From: an uncultured Rhodothermales bacterium
Lineage (GTDB): Bacteria > Bacteroidota > Rhodothermia > Rhodothermales > UBA10348
DNA: 64,000 nt
NCBI GenBank assembly: GCA_964512485.1
Contig: CAZEHJ010000004.1
Coordinates: forward strand, 3,400-67,399
Direction of reading: 5' to 3'
Positions 27 to 11,908 of this stretch are shown piece after piece (the first letter of the stretch is position 1; the number at the start of each line of letters is the position of its first letter). The notes below the pieces were generated by a model. That model was not told the origin of the DNA and ran no database searches. It was given only the letters and a program-made list of their open reading frames with translations. Both the position numbers and the translations under genes were made by a program.

Positions 27-893
27 ATGGCCCAGATTATTGACGGAAAAGCAATTTCGGCTCAGGTTCGAGACGAAGTTAAACAGGCCGTAACCGCACG
101 ATCCGAAGCCGGATTACGCGCTCCATATCTTGCGGTCGTTCTGGTCGGCGAAGATCCGGCATCCGCCTCATACGTTCGGGGAAAAGCCCGTGCTTCGGCG
201 GAAGTGGGCATTGAGAGCGACACGATGTCATATGACGCATCGATTGCCGAGGAGGAACTGCTGAACATCGTCGAGAAGCTGAACAATGACGATGGAGTTG
301 ATGGAATCCTGGTCCAACTTCCCCTTCCAGAACATATCGACGATCGTAAAGTGATCAATGCAATCGCTCCATCTAAGGATGTTGATTGCTTTCATCCTGA
401 AAGTGTAGGAAATCTGGTGATTGGCCTCGATGGGTTTGCTCCGGCTACACCAGCCGGTATTGTTGAGCTCCTACAGCGTTCAGGCATTGAGACGAGCGGA
501 AAACACTGCGTTATCGTCGGTCGATCCAACATCGTGGGTAAGCCCCTGGCCAATCTGATGTTGAAAAAGGGCCTCGATGCAACCGTAACGGTGTGTCATA
601 GCCGAACTAAAGACCTGCCCTCGGTCGCCAGACAGGCCGATATTCTGGTCGCTGCAATCGGTCGTGCAAATTTCGTGACGGCCGATATGGTGAAGGATGG
701 AGCAGTCGTGATTGACGTGGGTATCAATCGTGTCGACGATGCGAGCCGGGAACGAGGCTACCGTTTGGTCGGAGATGTGGACTTCGAAGCGGTTTCTGAA
801 AAGGCCAGCTTCATCACACCGGTTCCGGGCGGAGTTGGCCCGATGACCATCGCTGTTCTTCTCCAGAATACATTGAAAGCTGCCTCCAATTGA
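27..893 (+). CDS. folD: Bifunctional methylenetetrahydrofolate dehydrogenase/cyclohydrolase
   Basis: IIDGKAIS start, GILVQLPLP, KDVDCFHP, GRSNIVGKP, ITPVPGGVGPMTIA motifs. Confidence 0.98.
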   Translation: MAQIIDGKAISAQVRDEVKQAVTARSEAGLRAPYLAVVLVGEDPASASYVRGKARASAEVGIESDTMSYDASIAEEELLNIVEKLNNDDGVDGILVQLPLPEHIDDRKVINAIAPSKDVDCFHPESVGNLVIGLDGFAPATPAGIVELLQRSGIETSGKHCVIVGRSNIVGKPLANLMLKKGLDATVTVCHSRTKDLPSVARQADILVAAIGRANFVTADMVKDGAVVIDVGINRVDDASRERGYRLVGDVDFEAVSEKASFITPVPGGVGPMTIAVLLQNTLKAASN

Positions 894-1119
894 GGCTTCC
901 TGGCTTGATGTGTTGCGTAATGTATTCTGGTCTATTAGGCTGTCTACCAACATATTATGGTTTGTTTCCAGCAATCTACAGACGTCCTGATATCCTTTTC
1001 GATTTCCGCTTGAGTAATTGGTTTTCCCGCCGATCCAGTAGTCATGGGCGCACGCGCGCGAATAAATACGATGCGCAGCTTCCGGCACCGACAAACGCCA
1101 AACTACTCGGATCTTACTC

Positions 1120-4100
1120 ATGCGGACTCTCAACACACCGCGACAAATACGAAACTCGGGACGTGCGCTTCTTAGCGTTCTCTTGTTGTGCCTCCTTTAT
1201 CCGCTTTTCGGCCCTCAGCTGAATGCCCAGGCCATTGGAGACTTCAGATCCCGCAGGAATGGAAACTGGAGTAAAAGCAACCGCTGGGAAGAATACACGG
1301 GCGCCGGTTGGACCAATACCGGAAACACGCCTAATTCAGCGGACGGCGTGATAACGATCCGAAACGGACATAATATCCGCGGCAACGTCAACGCTAATTA
1401 CGATGAGGTCATCATCGAAAACGGCGGAAGTCTCGATCTGACGCAGGTTTTTAAAGTCGTTGATGGCCCTGGAATTGATCTGCAAGTGCATGGAATCCTT
1501 TCTGTCAATCGAAATGTGCGTGTCAGGGGTACGGCATCAGCGTTTTTTTACTCGACGTCCGACGTTGATTTCGGGGGCGGCAACAAGCTCAGATTCGAAG
1601 ACACTACCACAGCCACGTTTGATGGCGGTACAGTTGCAACCGCAAACGGCACATTCCAGGTCGAAGACAATGCTGTAGTCCAGGTGAACAATGGGACCGT
1701 GATAACCAATACGGGCAGAACACTTGTCAGGAACAGTGGATCTCTTACGCTCACTTCGAGCACAGTTGTCAATCAGGGCTTGTTTGACATAAATGGATCT
1801 GGCGCAGTTACCTTCGCGAATGGATCGATATATGAACACGGGCAGGACGGCAGCTACTTCCCGATTGCTGTCAGAACGACGTTTCAGGCTGGTTCTGAAG
1901 CGAGGGTCACCGGTGTTACGACGACCCTTCCTACGAGACTCAACCACACGTTTGACAAGTTCACGTGGAACTCGACTTCTCAAACAGCCGATCTGGACCT
2001 GGCAGCCGGAATTACAGCGATAAACGACGATTTCACCGTTACATCGACTGGAACGGGCTCTATCACTTGGGATGCGTCGGGGTCTGCCACAACTATCGGC
2101 GGTGACTACATCCAATCCGGCGGGGATTTTCGCTATTCAGACACCGGTTCCACCACGATGACCGTTTCAGGCAATCTGGATGTCAACGGTGGTACATTTG
2201 ACATCGCCAATACCTCCGGTACCCCAATTGTAGCCGTCGCCGGCAATTTTTCCGTTACAGGGGCCATGACCGAATCAGGAACTGGCTCTGGTACGGTCCT
2301 CCTGAACGGAGCAGGCGCACAAACCATTACTGCCAACGGTACTCTTTCGGGAAACATCCATGTGACTACCGCTGGCGCTGGACTCGCTTCGCTTACTACT
2401 GATTTGTTGGTCCCGGGAAATCTTACTGAAACGAGCGGTGGGCTCGATTTGGCCAACTTTGGCCTGGAGGTGGAAGGCAATCTCAGCATCACCTCCGCCC
2501 TCTCAAATACCGGACAAATCCTCTTTTCGAGCGCTACGGCAGCTCAACTGCAGCTTCCTGCCGGCTCCAAGACGCTTCCGGATGTTGTTATTGACAAGCC
2601 AGCCTCGTCTCTCACGATTCTTGCTGACGTTGCGACATCGACGACAGTCATCGTGAGGAATGGCACGCTCGACACCAACGGCTTCGAGTGGCTGCTGCCC
2701 CATGGGACAACTCTTTACAACACAGGTACTGTGACGGGAAATGTCACCATTCAGCGCTCATATTCCCAGAACAGCGATGGTTGGAGAATGCTGGCAGCAC
2801 CCGTAACGGGTCTCATGTATAGCGACCTGAATACCTCATTCTGGACGCAAGGAGCCCCTTGGGCATCAAAAATAGAGGGAACGGCAAACCTGCAGTCATT
2901 CGATTTCGCCTCTCAGGGCTGGACTGAATTAGGCGGAGCTGACGCCGGCTTCGGGACCGGTGGCGGCTACATCTTCTATATGTACGCGCTGGATGACCTG
3001 GGAGCACCAATTTTGCCAGCTACCTGGACTGCAACGGGTACTCCGGGAGCGATGGGAACCATGGGCCTCTCTTTCGCGACCGCGATATCAGATTCGTACA
3101 ACCTTATGGGCAATCAGTCCACCACAAATCTGGATTGGGACCTGACGCATGCTGCCAGTACCAACATGGAATCGTCGTATGCCACCTGGGACCCTTCGGT
3201 CACAACGGGTGGTGGCACGACAGGATACAAGTATTATGATGCAACCAGTGGACTCGGAGCGGCCGGTCGGTACGTAGCCCCCTTCACCTCATTCATGGTT
3301 GCCGCCAATGCTGGTGGAGCTCAGATTGTCCCGACCTCGAGCGAAGCGGCTTCCCGACAAACTGCCGTCACGTACGGTAAAAACAACCGCATTGCACCAC
3401 ATTTCCGCCTTTTGCTTGAAGGTGAGGGACTTGCCGAAAACGAGACCTATCTCTCGTACGGCGGCGAGGCCACAGACGAATCCGGTGAATTTGACGTGCT
3501 GCGCCTGCACCCCCTCTCTCTCGATTTTGTGACCCTTTGGTCTGAATCTGATGGACGCAGGCTGGCATTTGACGGCCGCACCATGGACGAAGGTCGCGAA
3601 ATCTACGACCTCACAGTTGCAGCGACCCGAAACGGACAATATTCGCTCACATTGCTTGGCAAACACAAAATCCCCGATTCCTGGACCGTTACGCTTGTTG
3701 ACCTTCAGACGGGCAACAAGGCTGACCTGAGTAACGGCGAAGAAATGCTGTTCCAGACGCGCTCTGAAGACATCGTGACGGTCAATTCAGGCTTCGAATC
3801 CACACGCGCTCCTCGATTCAGGGTGATCGTGACGGATTCAAATCGAACGGTGGAGGCATCTGAAGACCTTTTCGCACAGACAGATGTGCCCGTTCTGAGC
3901 CAGAATTACCCAAATCCCTTCAATCCATCTACTTCGATCCGTTATTCCATCCCACGTTCATCCGTGGTTTCTCTCGAAGTATTTGATGTCCTCGGTCGTC
4001 GTCTGGCCATTCTTGTGGACCAGACTCAGGATGCCGGCTGGCATGAAGTGAATTTTTTGTCTGGAAATCTTGGAAGTGGCACCTATTTATACCGCTTAGT

Positions 4101-4146
4101 CGTTGATGGCCAATCGTTTAGTAGGCCTATGCTCCTGCTTAAGTAG
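1120..4146 (+). CDS. Large secreted adhesin-like protein with beta-helix-type repeats and T9SS C-terminal sorting domain
   Basis: Signal peptide (..QLNA|QA); N-terminal GDFRS..GNW..W..ITIRNGH motif; G/T/N/S-rich repeats of the type xVxGN(L/F)xVxGG; C-terminal SQNYPNPFNPST..VFDVLGR..GTYLYRL..MLLLK CTD (~3892-4146). Confidence 0.8.
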   Translation: MRTLNTPRQIRNSGRALLSVLLLCLLYPLFGPQLNAQAIGDFRSRRNGNWSKSNRWEEYTGAGWTNTGNTPNSADGVITIRNGHNIRGNVNANYDEVIIENGGSLDLTQVFKVVDGPGIDLQVHGILSVNRNVRVRGTASAFFYSTSDVDFGGGNKLRFEDTTTATFDGGTVATANGTFQVEDNAVVQVNNGTVITNTGRTLVRNSGSLTLTSSTVVNQGLFDINGSGAVTFANGSIYEHGQDGSYFPIAVRTTFQAGSEARVTGVTTTLPTRLNHTFDKFTWNSTSQTADLDLAAGITAINDDFTVTSTGTGSITWDASGSATTIGGDYIQSGGDFRYSDTGSTTMTVSGNLDVNGGTFDIANTSGTPIVAVAGNFSVTGAMTESGTGSGTVLLNGAGAQTITANGTLSGNIHVTTAGAGLASLTTDLLVPGNLTETSGGLDLANFGLEVEGNLSITSALSNTGQILFSSATAAQLQLPAGSKTLPDVVIDKPASSLTILADVATSTTVIVRNGTLDTNGFEWLLPHGTTLYNTGTVTGNVTIQRSYSQNSDGWRMLAAPVTGLMYSDLNTSFWTQGAPWASKIEGTANLQSFDFASQGWTELGGADAGFGTGGGYIFYMYALDDLGAPILPATWTATGTPGAMGTMGLSFATAISDSYNLMGNQSTTNLDWDLTHAASTNMESSYATWDPSVTTGGGTTGYKYYDATSGLGAAGRYVAPFTSFMVAANAGGAQIVPTSSEAASRQTAVTYGKNNRIAPHFRLLLEGEGLAENETYLSYGGEATDESGEFDVLRLHPLSLDFVTLWSESDGRRLAFDGRTMDEGREIYDLTVAATRNGQYSLTLLGKHKIPDSWTVTLVDLQTGNKADLSNGEEMLFQTRSEDIVTVNSGFESTRAPRFRVIVTDSNRTVEASEDLFAQTDVPVLSQNYPNPFNPSTSIRYSIPRSSVVSLEVFDVLGRRLAILVDQTQDAGWHEVNFLSGNLGSGTYLYRLVVDGQSFSRPMLLLK

Positions 4147-4259
4147 AGCCGACTCGCCTACGTTCATCTACTTAATTCCTGATCATTTCAGCCGATAGGT
4201 GATGCAGAGGCGGAACGGTTTCGCCCCTCAATTGAGCCTTTAACCGAAGACTCTCTCTC

Positions 4260-4267
4260 AAGGAGGT
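4260..4267 (+). promoter_or_regulatory. Consensus Shine-Dalgarno site of the first pilin-like gene
   Basis: AAGGAGGT 7 nt before ATG at 4275. Confidence 0.8.
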
Positions 4268-4274
4268 ATATCTC

Positions 4275-4781
4275 ATGAAGAAAATGAAATTAACTGTTAT
4301 TGTGACCGGGCTGATCCTGTTTGCAGGATTGGCCACCACCGCAAAAGCGCAGTCTGACAATCATCTGGTAAACGTCGAAGTGCAGGCAATCAACGAGATT
4401 GCAATCGCGGCTGATGTTACACTTCAGATTACGACTGCAACGGCTGGTTCCGATCCAACGGATGCTACTGACAACACTTCGTATGCAATAACGACGAACG
4501 ATGCCGGTGGAACAACCAGAATTACAGCAGCTACGAGCGTCGACCCAGCCACGTTGGGTGATGGTCCTGCTGGTGTAGACATCCAGGTAAACGCAACTGC
4601 TCCTACGGGCGGTTTGGGTGCCGGGAATATTTCTCTCGGAACCGTTGCAGCTAACGTTGTAACCAGTATCGACCCTGTTTCTGAAGGAACACTGACACTC
4701 GCTTACACGCTGAGTGCCACCGCCGAAACTGGACAGCTGGCTTCAACTGCCGTTACAGTTACCTACACGATCGTCAACTAA
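4275..4781 (+). CDS. Secreted pilin-like subunit 1 (putative major subunit)
   Basis: Sec signal peptide (AKA|QS); A/T/V/G-rich beta protein with no Cys; N-terminal alternating LVNVEV strand; C-terminal VTVTYTI strand; paralogous to the next two ORFs. Confidence 0.65.
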   Translation: MKKMKLTVIVTGLILFAGLATTAKAQSDNHLVNVEVQAINEIAIAADVTLQITTATAGSDPTDATDNTSYAITTNDAGGTTRITAATSVDPATLGDGPAGVDIQVNATAPTGGLGAGNISLGTVAANVVTSIDPVSEGTLTLAYTLSATAETGQLASTAVTVTYTIVN

Positions 4782-4797
4782 GCAGTGAAAACTGTTT
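4780..4797 (+). promoter_or_regulatory. Stem-loop directly after the subunit 1 stop codon (GAAA tetraloop)
   Basis: AAGCAGT-GAAA-ACTGTTT, 7-bp stem with one G-U pair. Confidence 0.45.
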
Positions 4798-4832
4798 AGA
4801 ACGCGATCTGTAGATATCCCTTCAAACGATCC

Positions 4833-5369
4833 ATGCGTAGAACAATGCCCATACTGTGGTTATTTCTCGCATGGATCGTTTTGTTTTGGGTTCCCGACTC
4901 AAGGGCCCAAGTCCCTCCTCCTCTTCCTGACGCGCTCATAATGGCGGCATCCAGCCTGACCCTAAGCCAGTCGGTGACGGTTTCCGTTCAGGAAATCAAC
5001 GAACTTTCTATTTCCGGGGATGTGGCAATTACAATTTCCACTGCTTCACCGGGCTCCGGACCTGATCCTGAGAACGACACCTCCGCCAGCTACAATCTGA
5101 CCACCAACGGAGCCAACAAGAAGATTACAGGCTCGATAGATGTGGCCTACACGGCTGGAATCACCCTCTCTCTATTGCTGGCAGCGCCTTCTGGTGGCTC
5201 AGCATCCTCAAAAAACCTCAGCACCACGGCTCAAGACCTCGCCACCGGATTCGGCCTCACAGCTGAATCCAGCCTTGGCATCACCTATACAGCATCCGCG
5301 ACCGTTGACGTAGCTCCGAACGGCCTTGGTGAAACGCGTACGGTAACGCTTACGCTGATGGACAACTGA
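4833..5369 (+). CDS. Secreted pilin-like subunit 2 (Pro-rich N-terminal extension)
   Basis: Signal peptide (SRA|QV); shares VxVxVQxINE..I.xDV..I.TA..GS.P, SY..TTN, AP.GG, Y..SAT and the C-terminal TVT.T motifs with subunit 1. Confidence 0.65.
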   Translation: MRRTMPILWLFLAWIVLFWVPDSRAQVPPPLPDALIMAASSLTLSQSVTVSVQEINELSISGDVAITISTASPGSGPDPENDTSASYNLTTNGANKKITGSIDVAYTAGITLSLLLAAPSGGSASSKNLSTTAQDLATGFGLTAESSLGITYTASATVDVAPNGLGETRTVTLTLMDN

Positions 5370-5370
5370 G

Positions 5371-5880
5371 ATGAGAACATGTAGCCAACATATTCTCAGA
5401 CTTTCCGCAGCAAGCCTGGTCATCCTGTTCAGCCTCCTTTCTGCCCCACAAAGCCGGGCACAGGAGTTTCGCTACAATTCAGGCGGTGGCCCGCTAACTC
5501 TGCTGATCCAGACGGCGACGGCAGGCTCAGAGCCGAATGATGCCACTGACAATGCAACAGAAATCTACTGGGATGCCAACTTCGGCGCCCCATCCAAAAT
5601 TACAGTCTCGACTATCGCACCAGGCCAGTCTTTCCAGCTCTTCCTTTTACTTAGCGTACCAAGCCAGGGTGGTGGTGGACAAGGTGTTGCGCAGCCCGAG
5701 GTCACGTTAGTTGACGGGATGCTCGATGCAGACCTGTTTACAGACATTCCCTCCACCCTGCCAGGACGGCAAGGTTTTGGCACGCTTGAATACCGTGCAG
5801 CCGCTACAGTTGCTGATGGCAACAGTTCGATGCACGGAGATGACGTTCACATAGTCACTTTAACCGTTTTAGCCCAATGA
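5371..5880 (+). CDS. Secreted pilin-like subunit 3 (lacks the N-terminal strand)
   Basis: Signal peptide (SRA|QE); TATAGSEPNDATDN nearly identical to TATAGSDPTDATDN of subunit 1; KIT, LEYRAAAT and C-terminal IVTLTV motifs. Confidence 0.6.
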   Translation: MRTCSQHILRLSAASLVILFSLLSAPQSRAQEFRYNSGGGPLTLLIQTATAGSEPNDATDNATEIYWDANFGAPSKITVSTIAPGQSFQLFLLLSVPSQGGGGQGVAQPEVTLVDGMLDADLFTDIPSTLPGRQGFGTLEYRAAATVADGNSSMHGDDVHIVTLTVLAQ

Positions 5881-6698
5881 GCAGACAAATAGCCCTCATA
5901 CTCACTCTTTTGATGCTGGCTGTTCCTTCCTCTTCGAAGGCACAAATTTCCGTCAGATCTCAGCTTTCACAGGACACCAGCGCCCAACCTGGTGAATCCT
6001 ACGTGGGATCGATACTGATTCGCAACGATACGGATGAAATTCAGCAGGCAAAGATTTATCAGACGGATTATCTGTTCCAGTCTGACGGGTCAAACTATTT
6101 CGGCGATCCAGGAACGATTGAACGTTCAAATGCAAAGTGGATCGACGTTGCATCTTCATCCATGATGGTCCCTCCTCGTGAAGCCATCGAGGTAAGTTAT
6201 CGCGTGAACGTACCAATGGACGTAGATGCCGAACCTCTTCAGGGGTCGTACTGGAGCATCATCATGGTAGAGGGCATTCCCAAGAGCTCTCCAGAGAATA
6301 TTGAGAACGATGTACCAGACGATGCTCTGGGAATAATTCAGGTCACTCGCTACGGTGTACAGGTTGCCACTCACATTGACGGCACCGGCGCTGCAAACCT
6401 GACAATCAGTGAATCAGCTCTGTCCAAAAGCGAAGGCAACATTGCTTCTCTGCAACTGAGCGTGGCAAACGAAGGCGACAAGCTTGTCAGGCCTGAAATC
6501 TGGGTTGAGCTCTACGATGAGGCAGGAAACGCCCTTGGACGCATCGACGGAGTCAATAACCGCATTTATCCAGGAACGAGCGTCAAGCAACAGATTGAAC
6601 TGGGTAAACTCGAAATCGGAAGATACCGGGCCCTTGTCATCATGGATGCCGGAGACGATGAGGTGTTCGCGGCCGAATACAATCTGAACATCGACTAA
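5877..6698 (+). CDS. Periplasmic two-Ig-domain chaperone-like protein (PapD-like / DUF916-like)
   Basis: Signal peptide (SKA|QI); W.DV....VPP..A.EV.Y.V.VP, GSYWSIIMVE, acidic loop then LGIIQVTRYGVQV; second Ig domain with NEG..LVRP..W.ELYD..G and G.YRALVI.D; ATGA overlap with subunit 3. Confidence 0.6.
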   Translation: MSRQIALILTLLMLAVPSSSKAQISVRSQLSQDTSAQPGESYVGSILIRNDTDEIQQAKIYQTDYLFQSDGSNYFGDPGTIERSNAKWIDVASSSMMVPPREAIEVSYRVNVPMDVDAEPLQGSYWSIIMVEGIPKSSPENIENDVPDDALGIIQVTRYGVQVATHIDGTGAANLTISESALSKSEGNIASLQLSVANEGDKLVRPEIWVELYDEAGNALGRIDGVNNRIYPGTSVKQQIELGKLEIGRYRALVIMDAGDDEVFAAEYNLNID

Positions 6699-6735
6699 CA
6701 CCTGACACCTTTCAAAATCGGACACTCCAGGTCTG

Positions 6736-9700
6736 ATGAGACGATCTAGTTACATATCGGTTGTTCTGTTAATCACGGGATTGTTCGCCGTCGCACCAAG
6801 CGCAACGGCGGCTTTTTCTTTTGAAGAGGTTTCTCGGCAGGACGAAGTGTCCATCGATATAATCGGCGGAGACAGCCTTGCTGTGGACCCGGGCGATGTT
6901 GTAACACTGGTCTACAAGATCCACTCAGACCAATCGGGTGTTCGCAATCTGACTCCATCTTTTGACATTCCACAGGGATGGAGCGTCGTTTTTGGAACAG
7001 ATACGCTGAAATTGAGCCCTGAAGAACCCACGACCCGATTGGTGACCTACAAGGTTCCGGAGTCGTCACTGGCCGGTTCCTACAAGATCAACCTTGCGCT
7101 CCTTGACGCAGAGGGAAATGCGATAGGAAATAAAAGTGCCGGTATTGGAGTCAATGCAATTTTCGCGATCGACCTGGATGCAGACCCCATGGAAACCTAT
7201 GCGGCAGCCGGAAAGCTGGTTCAGGTCACTTTCACGCTTTCAAACGACGGCAACGCACCCATCTCTGTGAACCTCGATGCTGTCGACCGCAAGTTTGCTG
7301 ACGTTCGCCTACCATATTCCAGCATTGATCTGGCTCCGAAAGAGTCAGTCACCTTTACTGCCGAAATCAACACAGATGCCAATCTCGATCACACCCAGCG
7401 GGCAAACCTGCGATTTGAAGCCCAGATCGCCGAAAAAAGTGAAATATTCGATTTTGAAACTGTAGCGTTTGATATCGTACCCGTCTATTCCCGAATCCGT
7501 CCAAAAGCGGCCAGAGTGCCTCTGAGCCTTGCTCTTGAAACAGTGGGAGACGAATCCGGAATAATGCCCCAGGCCACAATCGCTGCACAGACTCACCTTT
7601 TGGGTGGCAACGTATCTGTGATTGCTACCCTTGCTGAGATGCCACGTCAGAAGTTCTTCGGAGCGGATCAGCGACTCGAAATTCAGTACGAGAACGAAGA
7701 TGTGACCGTAAAACTCGGCGATCACTCTCAGTCCATCTCACCGATGACGCTCACAGGAGAGCAAGGACTCGGAATTGGAGCAGAAGTTAAAACTACAGAC
7801 TGGACGTTTAAAGGCACTGTCCAACGTTCACGATTCGTATTCCCAGTACAGGAACGATTCGCTGCCTCAGCCGCCTACCAGACATCACCATCGTCCTTTG
7901 TAAGCGCTAACTTGCTGCACCGCAACGAATTTTACGATGGCACCTTACTTACTTTGAGAAGTTCTTCGCAGCCGCTTGGTTCTTCTTCCCGTATGGATGT
8001 CGAGTGCGGAATCGACTCTTCTGAAGCGTTGCGAGATCCCTCCTGCTCGGTTCAGTTCTCAGATAGTGGCTCCCGATTGTCGTACCGAATACGAGCTCAG
8101 AAGGCGTCGGAGTCATTTCCCGGCACACTGGCAGGACTACGCCAGATTTCCGAATACGCATCCTTCAGGCTGAACGACAGATTCCGCCTCGACAATACGT
8201 ATAGACGTTTCGATCGATCGTTGGGCGGCGGATTTGCGCGTTCGAGTTCTCTCGCGAAGGCTGGAGTCACATATACCGATCGCATTCACGGAGGTACATT
8301 GTACCTGACGGCGCATGGTATCCGCACTAAATCGACCTATTCCAATATTCGATCAGACGCGGATCGATCTGAACTTATTGCTCGAACAACCCTGGGATAT
8401 CACATGCGTTCCATAGGGTTAACGGTATCTATGGAGGAAGGTAGAACGACCTCCACCAGCGAGCAGAAGGCAGGGAGTCTGCGCCGTTTCAAGACCAATT
8501 TCAGAGTTTCTCCTCTCCCAAGATGGACGCTGAACGCGTCAGTTGAAGCATCGACGGGCAGCCTTTCCGCTCTTTCTGTACGTCAGTCGCAGAAGCAGTA
8601 TGGTCTCGGCTCCACGATCAGCCTGCCTCGTGAGTGGACGGCCAGTGTGATAGGATTTCACAGTCAGGTCAAAACCCTGATTGATCAGCAGTATTCATCT
8701 CTCAGAAGCGGCCTTTCCAAGTCATTTCGGTCCGGTCGTACTCTTTCCGCCCAGGTTCAGCTGAACCGGAGTACGGGTCGTAGTACCGTTCAAACGGCAG
8801 ATTACCGCCTTTCATTTACTACTCCACTTTCCATGCCGTTTGGTGGAAAAGGATTTGACGATGAAATGCTGCGTGGTCGCGTGACCGATGAAGAAACGGG
8901 ACTCCCATTGTCAGGCGTTCTCGTATTTCTGGGCGACAAACTTGCTATCTCTGATGACAAGGGACGATTTGTCTTCCCGAGACCTGAACTGGCTGTAGAA
9001 TTCCTTCGCGTAGATCAGAACAGTATCGGCTATGATCGCACACCCGCCGCCGCCATGCCGATGGAAATCGATCCATCCTCGTTTCTGAACTCAGAATTGA
9101 ACCTGATCATATCCAAGGCTTCCAGTATTACCGGAGACATTTTCATCTACCACAACAGTGCAAGCAGCGACCTGCTCGTTGGGAATCCATCAGACAAACT
9201 GGTTCAGGAAGGCGGAATCAATGGCGCGATAGTTCAGATTTCCAATGAGAAGCACAGACAGCGTACGAGAACATCACGCAGCGGATCTTTCAGGTTTGAC
9301 CAGCTTCCATCCGGCGAATACACTATTGAGATTATTCGCATTCAACACGAAGAACACCAACAGATTAGCACGACTTCGTTTAAGGTTTTTGTAAAGCAGG
9401 GTGAAAGTGAATACGTGCTATTCAGGGTGGAGCCGAAACGCAAGTCGATAAGGATGATTCAGTCTTCGACCCTGTCAGTAGGTGATCCTAAAGACAACAT
9501 TCGAAAAATACCTGTCCTCAAAGGAGATCACGTTTCTTCGGATTCCGTGAAAACCAAAAAGAATGATTGGAAGGCTCGCACTCCAAATCCTGAAACGCCT
9601 GTTCGAAATGAATCCAAACCTGCAAAAGGGAAATGGTCAGATCAGATGCTGGACTCTGCCAAAGAAGCCCCAAGCGATTCTCTGGACGCATTCTCTGCGG

Positions 9701-10551
9701 TATCAATACCGTATTACGTTGAAATAGAGGGAAATACAGCCAACGAGAAGAGATCCGGGCTCGTCATGCTTCTCTTTGTCCTGTGTGTGCTATTCGTCCT
9801 CCTGGACGTGGATCTTCTCGTTCGCCATGCGATGGATTCATTTGGCGGTCCCATCAAGTCGATGAATTCACCAGTCTGGCTCTGGACGATCAGGCAGGCA
9901 GCTGTTTATGCTCTTGGAATTGGATTTTTTACTCTCTGGGCTGGTGTGCTCGAAGGATTCGCTGTATCTCTGGCTCTTGGAGGCATTACAGTAGCCGTCG
10001 AATCGTGGAATACGTACCGAGCAATTGGGAATATCATGAACCTGACCTTCCTGAGACGGGCCGGATCGGGGTCCTGGATTCCATATAGAAACTCCACTGC
10101 TCGCATCGTCTCGATTTCCCTTGAGTCCGTCGAACTGGAGTTACTGAACGGAAATACCGTCAAAGTGGCCACCCATGCAATTCGACGCCTGTCACCGCGG
10201 AAATGGACGAGTAACTCAGTGGTAACAAATGAGTTTGAAATCCAGATATCCAGGATGTCCAATCTGAAGCTGGTCCGAAGCAGCATTGAGGAGACTCTGG
10301 CCTTGTACGCTCCCGAAGGAACATCCGGAAACGTCCATATCGAGTTTATAGATGTAAATGAAAGTGACACAATTGCTTCGATACGGACCGTAATCGACAA
10401 AGCTCGTCCTGATCATGGCATCATCAGTGCTGTGGTTGAGAAAGAGCTTGCCGCATACGGTGTTGAGCTGAGATCCGTCAGGCTTCATGCGCCAGATTCG
10501 CCCTTCGGCCCGCTCAAACTGGTTCAGCTCCCCGGTACCAAAGCGGCCTGA
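6736..10551 (+). CDS. Usher-like outer-membrane protein (2 Ig domains + beta-barrel + 2 carboxypeptidase-regulatory-like domains) fused to a C-terminal MscS-like module
   Basis: Signal peptide; aa ~38-250 two NEW3/COG1470-type Ig domains; aa ~261-700 amphipathic beta-strands; aa ~712-900 GRVTDEETGLPLSGV..SDDKGRF and GAIVQI..TSRSGSFRFDQLPSGEY; aa ~1005-1255 three hydrophobic helices plus MscS-like cytoplasmic domains. Confidence 0.6.
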   Translation: MRRSSYISVVLLITGLFAVAPSATAAFSFEEVSRQDEVSIDIIGGDSLAVDPGDVVTLVYKIHSDQSGVRNLTPSFDIPQGWSVVFGTDTLKLSPEEPTTRLVTYKVPESSLAGSYKINLALLDAEGNAIGNKSAGIGVNAIFAIDLDADPMETYAAAGKLVQVTFTLSNDGNAPISVNLDAVDRKFADVRLPYSSIDLAPKESVTFTAEINTDANLDHTQRANLRFEAQIAEKSEIFDFETVAFDIVPVYSRIRPKAARVPLSLALETVGDESGIMPQATIAAQTHLLGGNVSVIATLAEMPRQKFFGADQRLEIQYENEDVTVKLGDHSQSISPMTLTGEQGLGIGAEVKTTDWTFKGTVQRSRFVFPVQERFAASAAYQTSPSSFVSANLLHRNEFYDGTLLTLRSSSQPLGSSSRMDVECGIDSSEALRDPSCSVQFSDSGSRLSYRIRAQKASESFPGTLAGLRQISEYASFRLNDRFRLDNTYRRFDRSLGGGFARSSSLAKAGVTYTDRIHGGTLYLTAHGIRTKSTYSNIRSDADRSELIARTTLGYHMRSIGLTVSMEEGRTTSTSEQKAGSLRRFKTNFRVSPLPRWTLNASVEASTGSLSALSVRQSQKQYGLGSTISLPREWTASVIGFHSQVKTLIDQQYSSLRSGLSKSFRSGRTLSAQVQLNRSTGRSTVQTADYRLSFTTPLSMPFGGKGFDDEMLRGRVTDEETGLPLSGVLVFLGDKLAISDDKGRFVFPRPELAVEFLRVDQNSIGYDRTPAAAMPMEIDPSSFLNSELNLIISKASSITGDIFIYHNSASSDLLVGNPSDKLVQEGGINGAIVQISNEKHRQRTRTSRSGSFRFDQLPSGEYTIEIIRIQHEEHQQISTTSFKVFVKQGESEYVLFRVEPKRKSIRMIQSSTLSVGDPKDNIRKIPVLKGDHVSSDSVKTKKNDWKARTPNPETPVRNESKPAKGKWSDQMLDSAKEAPSDSLDAFSAVSIPYYVEIEGNTANEKRSGLVMLLFVLCVLFVLLDVDLLVRHAMDSFGGPIKSMNSPVWLWTIRQAAVYALGIGFFTLWAGVLEGFAVSLALGGITVAVESWNTYRAIGNIMNLTFLRRAGSGSWIPYRNSTARIVSISLESVELELLNGNTVKVATHAIRRLSPRKWTSNSVVTNEFEIQISRMSNLKLVRSSIEETLALYAPEGTSGNVHIEFIDVNESDTIASIRTVIDKARPDHGIISAVVEKELAAYGVELRSVRLHAPDSPFGPLKLVQLPGTKAA

Positions 10552-10632
10552 ACAACCCCTTACAGCGCGGTTCAACCTGTCTGTATTGCCGGAAGGCGTT
10601 TGGGCCCGAAATCCGCACCGATCTGGATTCGG

Positions 10633-11097
10633 TCAATCTCCGAAGTTGAGAACTGATCCCTCGTATTCTTCCCCGTTAATCGAATAGCAATACTCGATCT
10701 GAGCGCTCTTGGCCAGCATTTCCGCCACCGAGCAGTATTTGCCCAGACCCAATTCGATCGCGCGCCTGGTCTTTTTCTCATCCAGAGTCCCTTCGAATCG
10801 ATAGGACAAGATGATGCGCTCGTAGGTTGAGGGCGAAACACCATCCGGTTTGAATCCATCAACTTGCATATTGAAGCCGGTGAGCTCCTGACGTCCTTTC
10901 TTTAGTATAGAAACGATGTCACCCCCACTGCAGGCACCGATCGCAATCACGATCAGCTGCATGGGGCCTACTCCGTTGCCGTCGCCATCTTCGTACGCCG
11001 TTGCGTCATCGATGTCAACCGAGTGGCCGTCAGCATTGAAGCCGCGAAAATGGAAATCATTGTCCTGTTTTTCAAGGCGAACAGATACTTTGCCCAT
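10633..11097 (-). CDS. OsmC/Ohr family (YhfA-like) protein
   Basis: GVGPMQL..AIGACSGGDIVSILKKGRQ and KYCSVA two-Cys motifs; probable start MGKVSV at 11097 (ORF track extends to 11151). Confidence 0.9.
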   Translation of the reverse strand: MGKVSVRLEKQDNDFHFRGFNADGHSVDIDDATAYEDGDGNGVGPMQLIVIAIGACSGGDIVSILKKGRQELTGFNMQVDGFKPDGVSPSTYERIILSYRFEGTLDEKKTRRAIELGLGKYCSVAEMLAKSAQIEYCYSINGEEYEGSVLNFGD

Positions 11098-11107
11098 CAG
11101 ATAGTCC

Positions 11108-11908
11108 TCAGTCGGTGGCGGATTCTTCTTCGTTCCAAGTCCAGGTACCAAGATCTTCCAAGGTGTGATAAGCCGTCAGGTCGTGTTGAATGGGTGTAAT
11201 TGAGACCCACCCATTTTCGACAGCCCATAAATCGGTGTTGTCGCCTGTGTCCAGGTTTACAAATGTACCTGATAGCCAGTAGTATGGTCTGTTAAACGGG
11301 TCGAGTCGTTCAGCAAACGACTCCTCCCACATGGATCTGGCCTGTCTCGTAACCATGCAGCCTTGTAATTCGGACAGCGGAAGATCTGGGACGTTCACGT
11401 TGAGCAGAATTCCGGGCATCAACCCTCCCTGCAGTACACGAACTGCTATATCTTTTGCCACTCGTGCGGATGCTTCGAAGTCGCCCCCTCCCCATTTGCA
11501 GTAGGAAAAGGCGATTGCGGGTATTCCCAGAATGGCCGCTTCTGTGGCCGCGCTGACCGTACCGGAATAGATCACGTTTACAGCCGTGTTGGGCCCATGA
11601 TTAATCCCAGAAACGACCAGATCAGGCTTTCTGGGGACGAGCTTGTCGAGTGCAAGCTTCACACAGTCGGCTGGAGTCCCCGAGACCGCATAGGCTTGAA
11701 TCTGACCCGATGGTCCCCGGAATGGCCAGGGCCGGGCTCTGACAGGATCACGCATCGTTATCGCATGGCCTACCGCACTCATTTCCTGAAGCGGGGCAAC
11801 GACTATCAGATCTGCAATTGAATCCAGAGCTGCAGCGAGCGACAGAATACCGGCAGCTTCAATTCCATCATCATTGCTGATCAGAATCAGCGGGCGATCA
11901 TTTTTCAT
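11108..11908 (-). CDS. surE: 5'/3'-nucleotidase SurE
   Basis: [39 protein letters not shown] motifs. Confidence 0.97.

Follow-up and report, generated by a model that had tools for sequence, protein, structure and literature searches.

Chaperone-usher (CU) pili are textbook virulence and biofilm organelles, mostly known from Proteobacteria. They are the closest described parallel to a gene cluster, named S-C-U here, in a window of 64,000 nucleotides (nt) of an uncultured Rhodothermales bacterium; the window is the whole stretch of DNA that was analysed, and all positions refer to it. The cluster lies on the + strand and consists of three genes for small secreted subunits (S1, S2 and S3), a gene for a chaperone-like protein (C) and a gene for a large pore-like protein (U). 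It resembles CU pili, especially the alternate or class 5 (CFA/I, CS1) and archaic (Csu, CupE) types, in that i) the subunits are small, Sec-exported, pilin-like proteins of immunoglobulin (Ig)-like fold with an N-terminal alternating hydrophobic extension, ii) a dedicated paralogue lacks this extension, iii) the putative periplasmic partner has about 250 amino acids (aa) and two Ig-like domains, iv) the predicted outer-membrane protein, of about 900 aa, has periplasmic N-terminal domains, a barrel and two C-terminal beta-sandwiches, and v) the genes form an operon in the order subunit, chaperone and pore, and a hairpin follows the gene of the major subunit. Unlike those of CU pili, the S-C-U proteins have no Fimbrial, SCPU, PapD or Usher sequence membership; C is nearer to WxLIP, the barrel signal of U is Porin_4 and not Usher, the tip candidate S3 is a single pilin domain without a lectin domain, U carries SPOR or MscS modules, and the hosts belong to the FCB group and Gemmatimonadota.

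The second system for comparison is the WxL clusters of Firmicutes, composed of a short WxL protein, a long WxL protein and a WxLIP (DUF916/DUF3324). These clusters bring together at least two small beta-sandwich paralogues and one WxLIP, and AlphaFold2 (AF2) models predict that a flexible WxLIP hairpin closes an opening in the WxL beta-sandwich by adding a parallel strand (PMC10599100). As modelled, this is donor-strand complementation of the chaperone type. C is structurally closest to WxLIP, with a weak sequence signal to its first domain, and S-C-U likewise sets a single protein of two Ig-like domains and a flexible, conserved loop beside several small beta-sandwich paralogues. In contrast to the WxL clusters, C has no membrane anchor, the S partners are not WxL domains and bear donor-type N-terminal strands, and S-C-U has a putative outer-membrane component and diderm hosts. 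A literature search returned nothing relevant on CU systems in these phyla or on a link between WxL and CU systems.

We consider that the S-C-U locus probably encodes a donor-strand-exchange fibre (pilus) assembly system, which would work like a CU system but stands outside all CU sequence families. Directly observed were the paralogy of the subunits and their three conserved kinds of N-terminus, the similarity of S1 and C to known proteins at the level of fold, the synteny of the locus and the domain content of U. The C profile was run over 185,579 species genomes and found 183 relatives, 80 of whose loci were fetched; the synteny set comprised 83 related places, all open reading frames (ORFs) of which were scanned with hidden Markov models (HMMs). 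C was present in 83/83 places and was directly followed by U except on two short contigs that ended first. S genes were on the contig in 77/83 places, with the order S (1–7 copies)-C-U on a single strand and S upstream, and an additional S gene was frequently found 3' of U. The sequence-only reading of the subunits as pilin-like is supported by this arrangement, in which their genes share an operon with those of a chaperone-like protein and a putative outer-membrane pore. The fetched loci came mostly from metagenome-assembled genomes (MAGs) of Rhodothermales, Ignavibacteriota and 'Bacteroidota'. Longimicrobium (Gemmatimonadota) also carries the operon, one of its MAGs having a module of one subunit and proteins of 264 and 1013 aa, while a second distant MAG encodes two subunits and proteins of 252 and 897 aa. 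Single MAGs with the locus bore the labels Bacteriovoracaceae, Spirochaetaceae, Syntrophales, Phycisphaerae, Pirellulales, Zixiibacteriota, Deferribacteres, Deltaproteobacteria and others. A profile search found no further S-C-U copy within the window.

S1 (4275–4781, 168 aa), S2 (4833–5369, 178 aa) and S3 (5371–5880, 169 aa), all on the + strand, had been proposed to be paralogous, and their similarity is indeed far above chance. BLASTP aligned S1 with S2 at 38% identity over 121 aa (E 2e-14), and gave E-values of 6e-8 for S1 against S3 and 7e-5 for S2 against S3; a profile made of S1-type homologues only scored S2 at 6.5e-37 and S3 at 1.5e-8. Every shared motif that had been listed falls on invariant columns of the three-way alignment: I.TA..GS.P....D corresponds to I52/T54/A55/G58/S59/P61/D66 and R/K-IT to I83/T84, with further invariant columns at P110/G112/G113 and Y144/A148/T149 and, in the C-terminal strand, at V162/T163/T165. 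The proteins have type-I signal peptides without a lipobox (S1 aa 1–25, AKA↓Q; S2 aa 1–25, SRA↓Q; S3 aa 1–30, SRA↓Q). Mature S1, S2 and S3 are all free of cysteine, as had been claimed; the full-length proteins contain 0, 0 and 1 Cys, that of S3 being residue 4, inside the signal peptide.

The three subunits differ at the N-terminus, and the differences noticed earlier are real and conserved in relatives. S1 and S2 bear an alternating V-x-V-x-V-x-A strand, which reads HLVNVEVQAINE in S1 (aa ~30–41, nt ~4362–4397) and QSVTVSVQEINE in S2 (aa 46–57, nt 4968–5003). The alternating positions of S1 are V32/V34/V36/A38, and conservation is at least 90% at V32, V36, A38 and I39. In mature S2 the strand is preceded by a QVPPPLPDA leader and a second hydrophobic stretch (aa 26–45); the leader reads Q(V/I/T)PPPLP in 8/13 related Rhodothermales-clade loci and has the shorter form QVPLP in the other 5/13. 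The mature N-terminus of S3, QEFRYNSGGGPLTL, has no strand, and the cleavage site lies about 10 residues closer to the TATAGS motif. For comparison, 242 S ORFs were aligned to the S profile. All three N-terminal types recur across the Rhodothermales-clade loci, as QxDNHxVxVEVQAINE (S1 type), Q(V/I/T)PPPLP...SLTLSQSVTVSVQEINE (S2 type) and QEFRFNSGGGP(L/I)TL (S3 type), and the strand-less type is also present in Ignavibacteria, where up to five S classes occur. Most multi-subunit loci of Rhodothermales and Ignavibacteria have, just upstream of C, an S gene without profile positions ~19–40; loci with one or two subunit genes retain the N-terminal strand.

These patterns bear on the roles of the subunits. 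Loss of the strand in one dedicated paralogue, conserved across phyla, is how a tip or initiator subunit would look, and S3 is accordingly the putative distal tip or initiator that the sequence-only reading took it to be. One-subunit loci retain the S1 type and no other, it is this type that is amplified elsewhere, and a stem-loop follows the S1 stop codon (see below); for these reasons S1 is regarded as the putative major fibre subunit, in agreement with the earlier proposal, and S2 as a putative minor one. The S1-like gene is tandemly amplified in locus L049 (five near-identical copies, at 30–4272 of that locus) and also in L062, L056, L028 and L024, and most Ignavibacteria loci encode an extra distinct S class after U. 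The amplification and the class after U may reflect antigenic or functional diversification, or the latter may be a terminator subunit.

The S family has escaped annotation. Among the 247 word-indexed homologues of S1, none has a Pfam domain or a protein name beyond 'hypothetical', and those carrying organism names come from Gemmatimonadota/Longimicrobium MAGs. An exhaustive profile search collected 1,999 clusters (50% identity) at E <= 1e-3 and 1,312 at E <= 1e-10, nearly all of them single domains of ~160 aa. No Pfam or NCBIfam family was found for S1 to S3, nor any Pfam family for 61 homologues, the sole Pfam match being that of S3 to FimA-like_C (E 1.3e-4, 22.1 bits), which falls short of the 27 bits of the gathering score. 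At the level of fold, the claim that the subunits are pilin-like is borne out by an AF2 model of S1 (61-sequence alignment, pLDDT 84.7, pTM 0.71), which shows an Ig-like pilin core. CU pilus subunits and tip adhesins made up 43 of its top 50 Foldseek matches in the PDB, including FimA rods, CfaB, PapA, CooA, FimF/G, CS17, CS20 and CupB6, with probabilities of 0.75–1.0 (~1.0 for the best 16); CfaB and CooA are cysteine-poor class 5 pilins. In the monomer model no strand is formed by residues 26–39, and the conserved segment VTLQITTATAG does not pair with any sheet although its pLDDT is >84, which hints at an open groove and a free N-terminal extension. CryoSeek TLP fibrils were also considered for S, and no such entry was among the top S1 structural matches.

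C (5877–6698, + strand, 273 aa) is a putative periplasmic subunit chaperone. It has a signal peptide (SKA↓Q) and neither a membrane anchor nor a C-terminal transmembrane helix, and its 741 word-indexed homologues are all unnamed. The AF2 model (pLDDT 91.5) consists of two beta-sandwich domains, aa 24–134 and 158–272, joined by a low-confidence loop (aa 135–157) that leads into a strand at aa 158–167 (loop and strand at nt 6279–6377). Residues S138, E140, G152, Q155, R158, Y159 and Q162 of the loop region are nearly invariant, and R83, R158 and R229 are invariant in the family; in PapD, the conserved basic cleft residues Arg8/Lys112 hold the C-terminus of the subunit. The best Foldseek match was 9i25_C, the Enterococcus faecium WxLIP bound to a WxL protein (E 4.9e-13, TMq 0.50), followed by free WxLIP (9i1y, E 2.5e-12 to 8.2e-12) and then by the CU chaperones CfaA, CsuC, YadV, FimC, Caf1M, CupB2, DraB and FaeE (E 1.5e-8 to 6e-7, TMt 0.5–0.58). 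WxLIP_PGBD (DUF916) gave weak, sub-threshold Pfam matches in 23/50 C members (best E 8.9e-4), and no match of C to DUF3324 was found. The proposed chaperone step has a precedent in the predicted action of the WxLIP hairpin, to which the conserved low-confidence loop of C is equivalent.

The same results could be read to mean that S-C-U is the diderm counterpart of a WxL cluster, in which the S proteins would be non-polymerising surface or envelope proteins, each completed by a strand of C, U would be an anchor or exit, and no fibre would be formed. The WxLIP structures at the head of the list for C, the recurrent WxLIP_PGBD matches and the pairing of small beta-sandwich paralogues with one WxLIP in WxL clusters (PMC10599100) all agree with this. 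However, C lacks the C-terminal transmembrane helix, WxL Pfam matches were found in 0/61 S members, S1 has no Trp, and the S1 model matches CU pilins. Moreover, a conserved N-terminal alternating strand that a single paralogue in each locus lacks would have no role in a 1:1 complex. We therefore regard this explanation as rather unlikely and prefer the donor-strand fibre.

U (6736–10551, + strand, 1271 aa) has a core, encoded at 6736–9435, that is a putative outer-membrane assembly pore. It comprises a signal peptide, two Ig-like domains (aa ~30–250), a beta-rich, porin-like centre of ~450 aa (aa ~255–705) and, in its C-terminal part, two CarboxypepD_reg/transthyretin-like domains (aa ~712–900). 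The Ig-like region is matched, up to aa ~250, by the Pfam families NPCBM_assoc and DUF7507/Ig_VWA7/FixG_C. Porin_4 matches the centre in 5/34 family members, best illustrated by the U of locus L066 (E 4e-7, 30.6 bits against a gathering score of 27), residues 271–548 of which align with positions 26–301 of the 310 in the model, and amphipathic beta segments, counted roughly by their periodicity in the family alignment, number ~23. CooC_C, the C-terminal domain of the CS1 usher, was weakly matched in 5/34 members.

A SPOR peptidoglycan-binding domain (best E 2.6e-25) ends U in 15/34 members. The U proteins of the window and its clade extend, by way of a Lys/Ser/Pro-rich linker of ~100 aa (aa ~900–1000), into a module of ~270 aa (9742–10548, + strand). 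Hydrophobic segments were detected in this module at ~1009 and ~1070, with a weaker third one at ~1050, and are followed by a beta and an alpha/beta domain. A profile of the module from 8 clade members aligns over positions 22–256 of 282 with YnaI/MscS chains (E 1.1e-7 to 1.5e-5), and MS_channel_2nd was found in 3/8 of these members; for the window copy of U alone, an MscS-family Pfam match was below detection. Judged from these alignments, the module is a divergent MscS-family channel module with a predicted pore-lining TM3, a beta domain and an alpha/beta domain. The fusion was seen in the clade loci L004–L008, L011 and L015, and the extended length of U (1134–1343 aa) is kept in 16 homologues, at least one of which (P0243) is without the module in its C-terminal part. 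In the Ignavibacteria-type loci (L019, L022, L029, L044 and L057) U ends in SPOR and not in the MscS module. Since some U proteins carry SPOR and others the MscS module, the C-terminal add-on is variable between clades, and both kinds of module place the C-terminus of U in the periplasm, as in ushers.

The N-terminus of MscS is periplasmic, and the topology of the U fusion is therefore consistent. Large periplasmic N-terminal regions are found in the E. coli MscS-family channels MscK, YbiO and YjeP. Over its final ~270 aa, U resembles YnaI/MscS in the pore-lining helix and the beta and alpha/beta domains, but the similarity is weak (profile E 1e-7) and the N-terminal ~900 aa of U are homologous to stand-alone S-C-U pore proteins and not to a helical periplasmic domain. 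The domain order is thus consistent with a predicted single polypeptide that runs from a barrel in the outer membrane, through periplasmic domains and the linker, to a channel module in the inner membrane. An invariant -AA closes all 8 of the long-form U proteins that were aligned; it is part of a (K/R/D/E)-A-A terminus after a conserved LRLV motif (10543–10548 in the window), which resembles a degron or a recognition tag. In the closest Rhodothermales MAG, two adjacent S-C-U systems (L004 and L010) lie ~9 kb apart on contig CBDFGO010000003.1, one with a long-form U of 1265 aa (an MscS-sized extension) and the other with a shorter U of 1177 aa.

These features of U raise the question of whether it is mainly a porin or a mechanosensitive envelope protein, S and C being accessory beta-sandwich proteins of the periplasm or envelope, for instance with a substrate-binding, envelope-structural or regulatory function, whose pilin likeness would be that of any Ig fold. 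The Porin_4 signal in place of an Usher one, the MscS module here and SPOR domains elsewhere, and the modest Foldseek scores of S1 would all suit such a protein. On the other hand, the Foldseek list of S1 consists almost purely of CU pilins and not of generic Ig domains, that of C is enriched in CU chaperones, and subunit genes in up to 7 copies with class-specific N-termini are typical of fibre subunits, so that we hold this view to be quite improbable. A type V (Bacteroidota FimA/Mfa-type) pilus, formed of lipoprotein precursors that polymerise after proteolysis, was rejected and is effectively excluded: it has in its favour the sub-threshold FimA-like_C match of S3 and a host in the FCB group, but the signal peptides lack a lipobox Cys and end in AKA↓Q or SRA↓Q, the mature subunits are Cys-free, FimA-like_C matched 0/61 S1-type homologues (S1 included) and not S2, no type V pilin was among the top 50 S1 Foldseek matches, and type V loci have, to our knowledge, no chaperone and pore pair.

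For the preferred donor-strand fibre, we infer the following pathway of strand exchange, ordered incorporation and export. S1, S2 and S3 would be exported by Sec, cleaved at AxA↓Q and folded in the periplasm to an incomplete Ig-like pilin domain. C, with two Ig-like domains, remote homology to WxLIP and a CU-chaperone-like shape, would bind each subunit and insert its conserved flexible loop and strand (aa ~135–167) into the open groove. The C:subunit complexes would dock on the periplasmic Ig-like domains of U, whose large central beta-barrel would lie in the outer membrane and whose two transthyretin-like domains would take the positions of the usher C-terminal domains (CTD1 and CTD2). At U, the V-x-V-x-V-x-A extension of the incoming subunit would displace the chaperone strand, i.e. 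donor-strand exchange. Since S3 has a groove but no extension, it would enter first and form the distal tip; S2, with its longer, clade-specific QxPPPLP extension, would be the adaptor joining tip to shaft, and S1 would polymerise as the shaft, the growing fibre presumably leaving through U.

Several points weigh against such a fibre. The system is known from sequence, its homologues stemming without exception from MAGs or metagenomes. No Pfam match at E <= 1 was obtained to Fimbrial (PF00419), SCPU (PF05229) or a class 5 pilin for S1 to S3 and 61 homologues, to PapD (PF00345/PF02753) in any of 50 C family members, or to Usher (PF00577), PapC_N or PapC_C in 34 U members. Searches of the PDB sequences with the S, C and U family profiles found no pilus protein and at most generic Ig or transthyretin domains. 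Comparison by hhalign of the S, C and U family alignments with those of the E. coli K-12 Fim/Yad/Sfm/Yeh pilins, chaperones and ushers gave probabilities that were all <45%, with positive controls (classical against Ecp usher and chaperone) at 0.5–3%, and so had no power and was discarded. The S1 Foldseek matches, although nearly all to CU proteins, have modest TM-scores (TMq 0.38–0.47) and E-values of only 8e-4 to 5e-2. Structurally, C comes closest to a Gram-positive protein for which no role in fibre building is known, and the porin-type signal of U suggests a barrel family not known to pass folded subunits. A place in the alternate CU class (CFA/I, CS1), whose major pilins the sequence-only reading had cited as free of disulfides, was not upheld, there being no sequence membership in this or any other CU class. 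Because such membership fails for the pilin, the chaperone and the usher, and the chaperone is nearer to WxLIP, the locus is not filed in the alternate class.

A broader proposal, which we put forward as speculative and more likely wrong than right by a good margin, is that S-C-U represents a distinct ancient class of donor-strand fibres linking CU and WxL systems, with WxLIP as a homologue of the chaperone. In the clade of the window, the pore would be joined by the ~100-aa periplasmic linker to the MscS-type channel, giving a single-polypeptide, envelope-spanning platform through which fibre force or tension in the envelope could be coupled to ion flux or fibre assembly. Should the fibre assignment be correct, a large unannotated family (~2,000 subunit clusters, with the three-component operon in at least 183 species representatives) would be added to the known ones, donor-strand fibre assembly would reach Rhodothermales, Ignavibacteria, Gemmatimonadota and other poorly studied phyla, and three sets of 'hypothetical proteins' would be given a function. 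It would also provide a concrete hypothesis on the relatives of the enigmatic Gram-positive WxLIP and, in the usher-like pore joined to an MscS-type channel, an unusual candidate for a two-membrane protein and a testable link between fibres and mechanosensing.

Upstream of S1, the + strand encodes a secreted protein of 1008 aa (1120–4146) that ends in a type IX secretion system (T9SS) type-A C-terminal sorting domain (TIGR04183, E 5.1e-8, 32.8 bits against a cutoff of 23, aa 930–1002) and has no other Pfam domain. Near-full-length homologues, aligning over ~800–1000 residues and in several cases longer (1239–2231 aa), were found in all Rhodothermales-clade loci (L004–L008, L010–L015, L017 and L051), on the same strand and either interspersed among the S genes or immediately upstream of them. 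In L012, L017 and L051 the T9SS protein sits between the major-type S gene and the S2-type gene. These data suggest that the T9SS cargo is functionally linked to the fibre system.

A scan of positions 3900–11300 for sigma-70 promoters and intrinsic terminators was uninformative, with counts no higher than expected from shuffled sequence. An RNA stem-loop at 4765–4811 (+ strand, -22.7 kcal/mol, z -3.96) overlaps the S1 stop codon and extends 3' of it. Stem-loops with different stem sequences occur at the same position in L005, L006 and L007 and, in weaker form, in L008 and L004. As the stem-loop of the window has no U-run, it is probably not a simple intrinsic terminator; it is a candidate attenuator or mRNA stabiliser, of the kind expected to raise the ratio of major to minor subunits. 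A strong Shine-Dalgarno-like AAGGAGG (4261–4267), located 8 nt 5' of the S1 start codon, fits with high translation of the putative major subunit.

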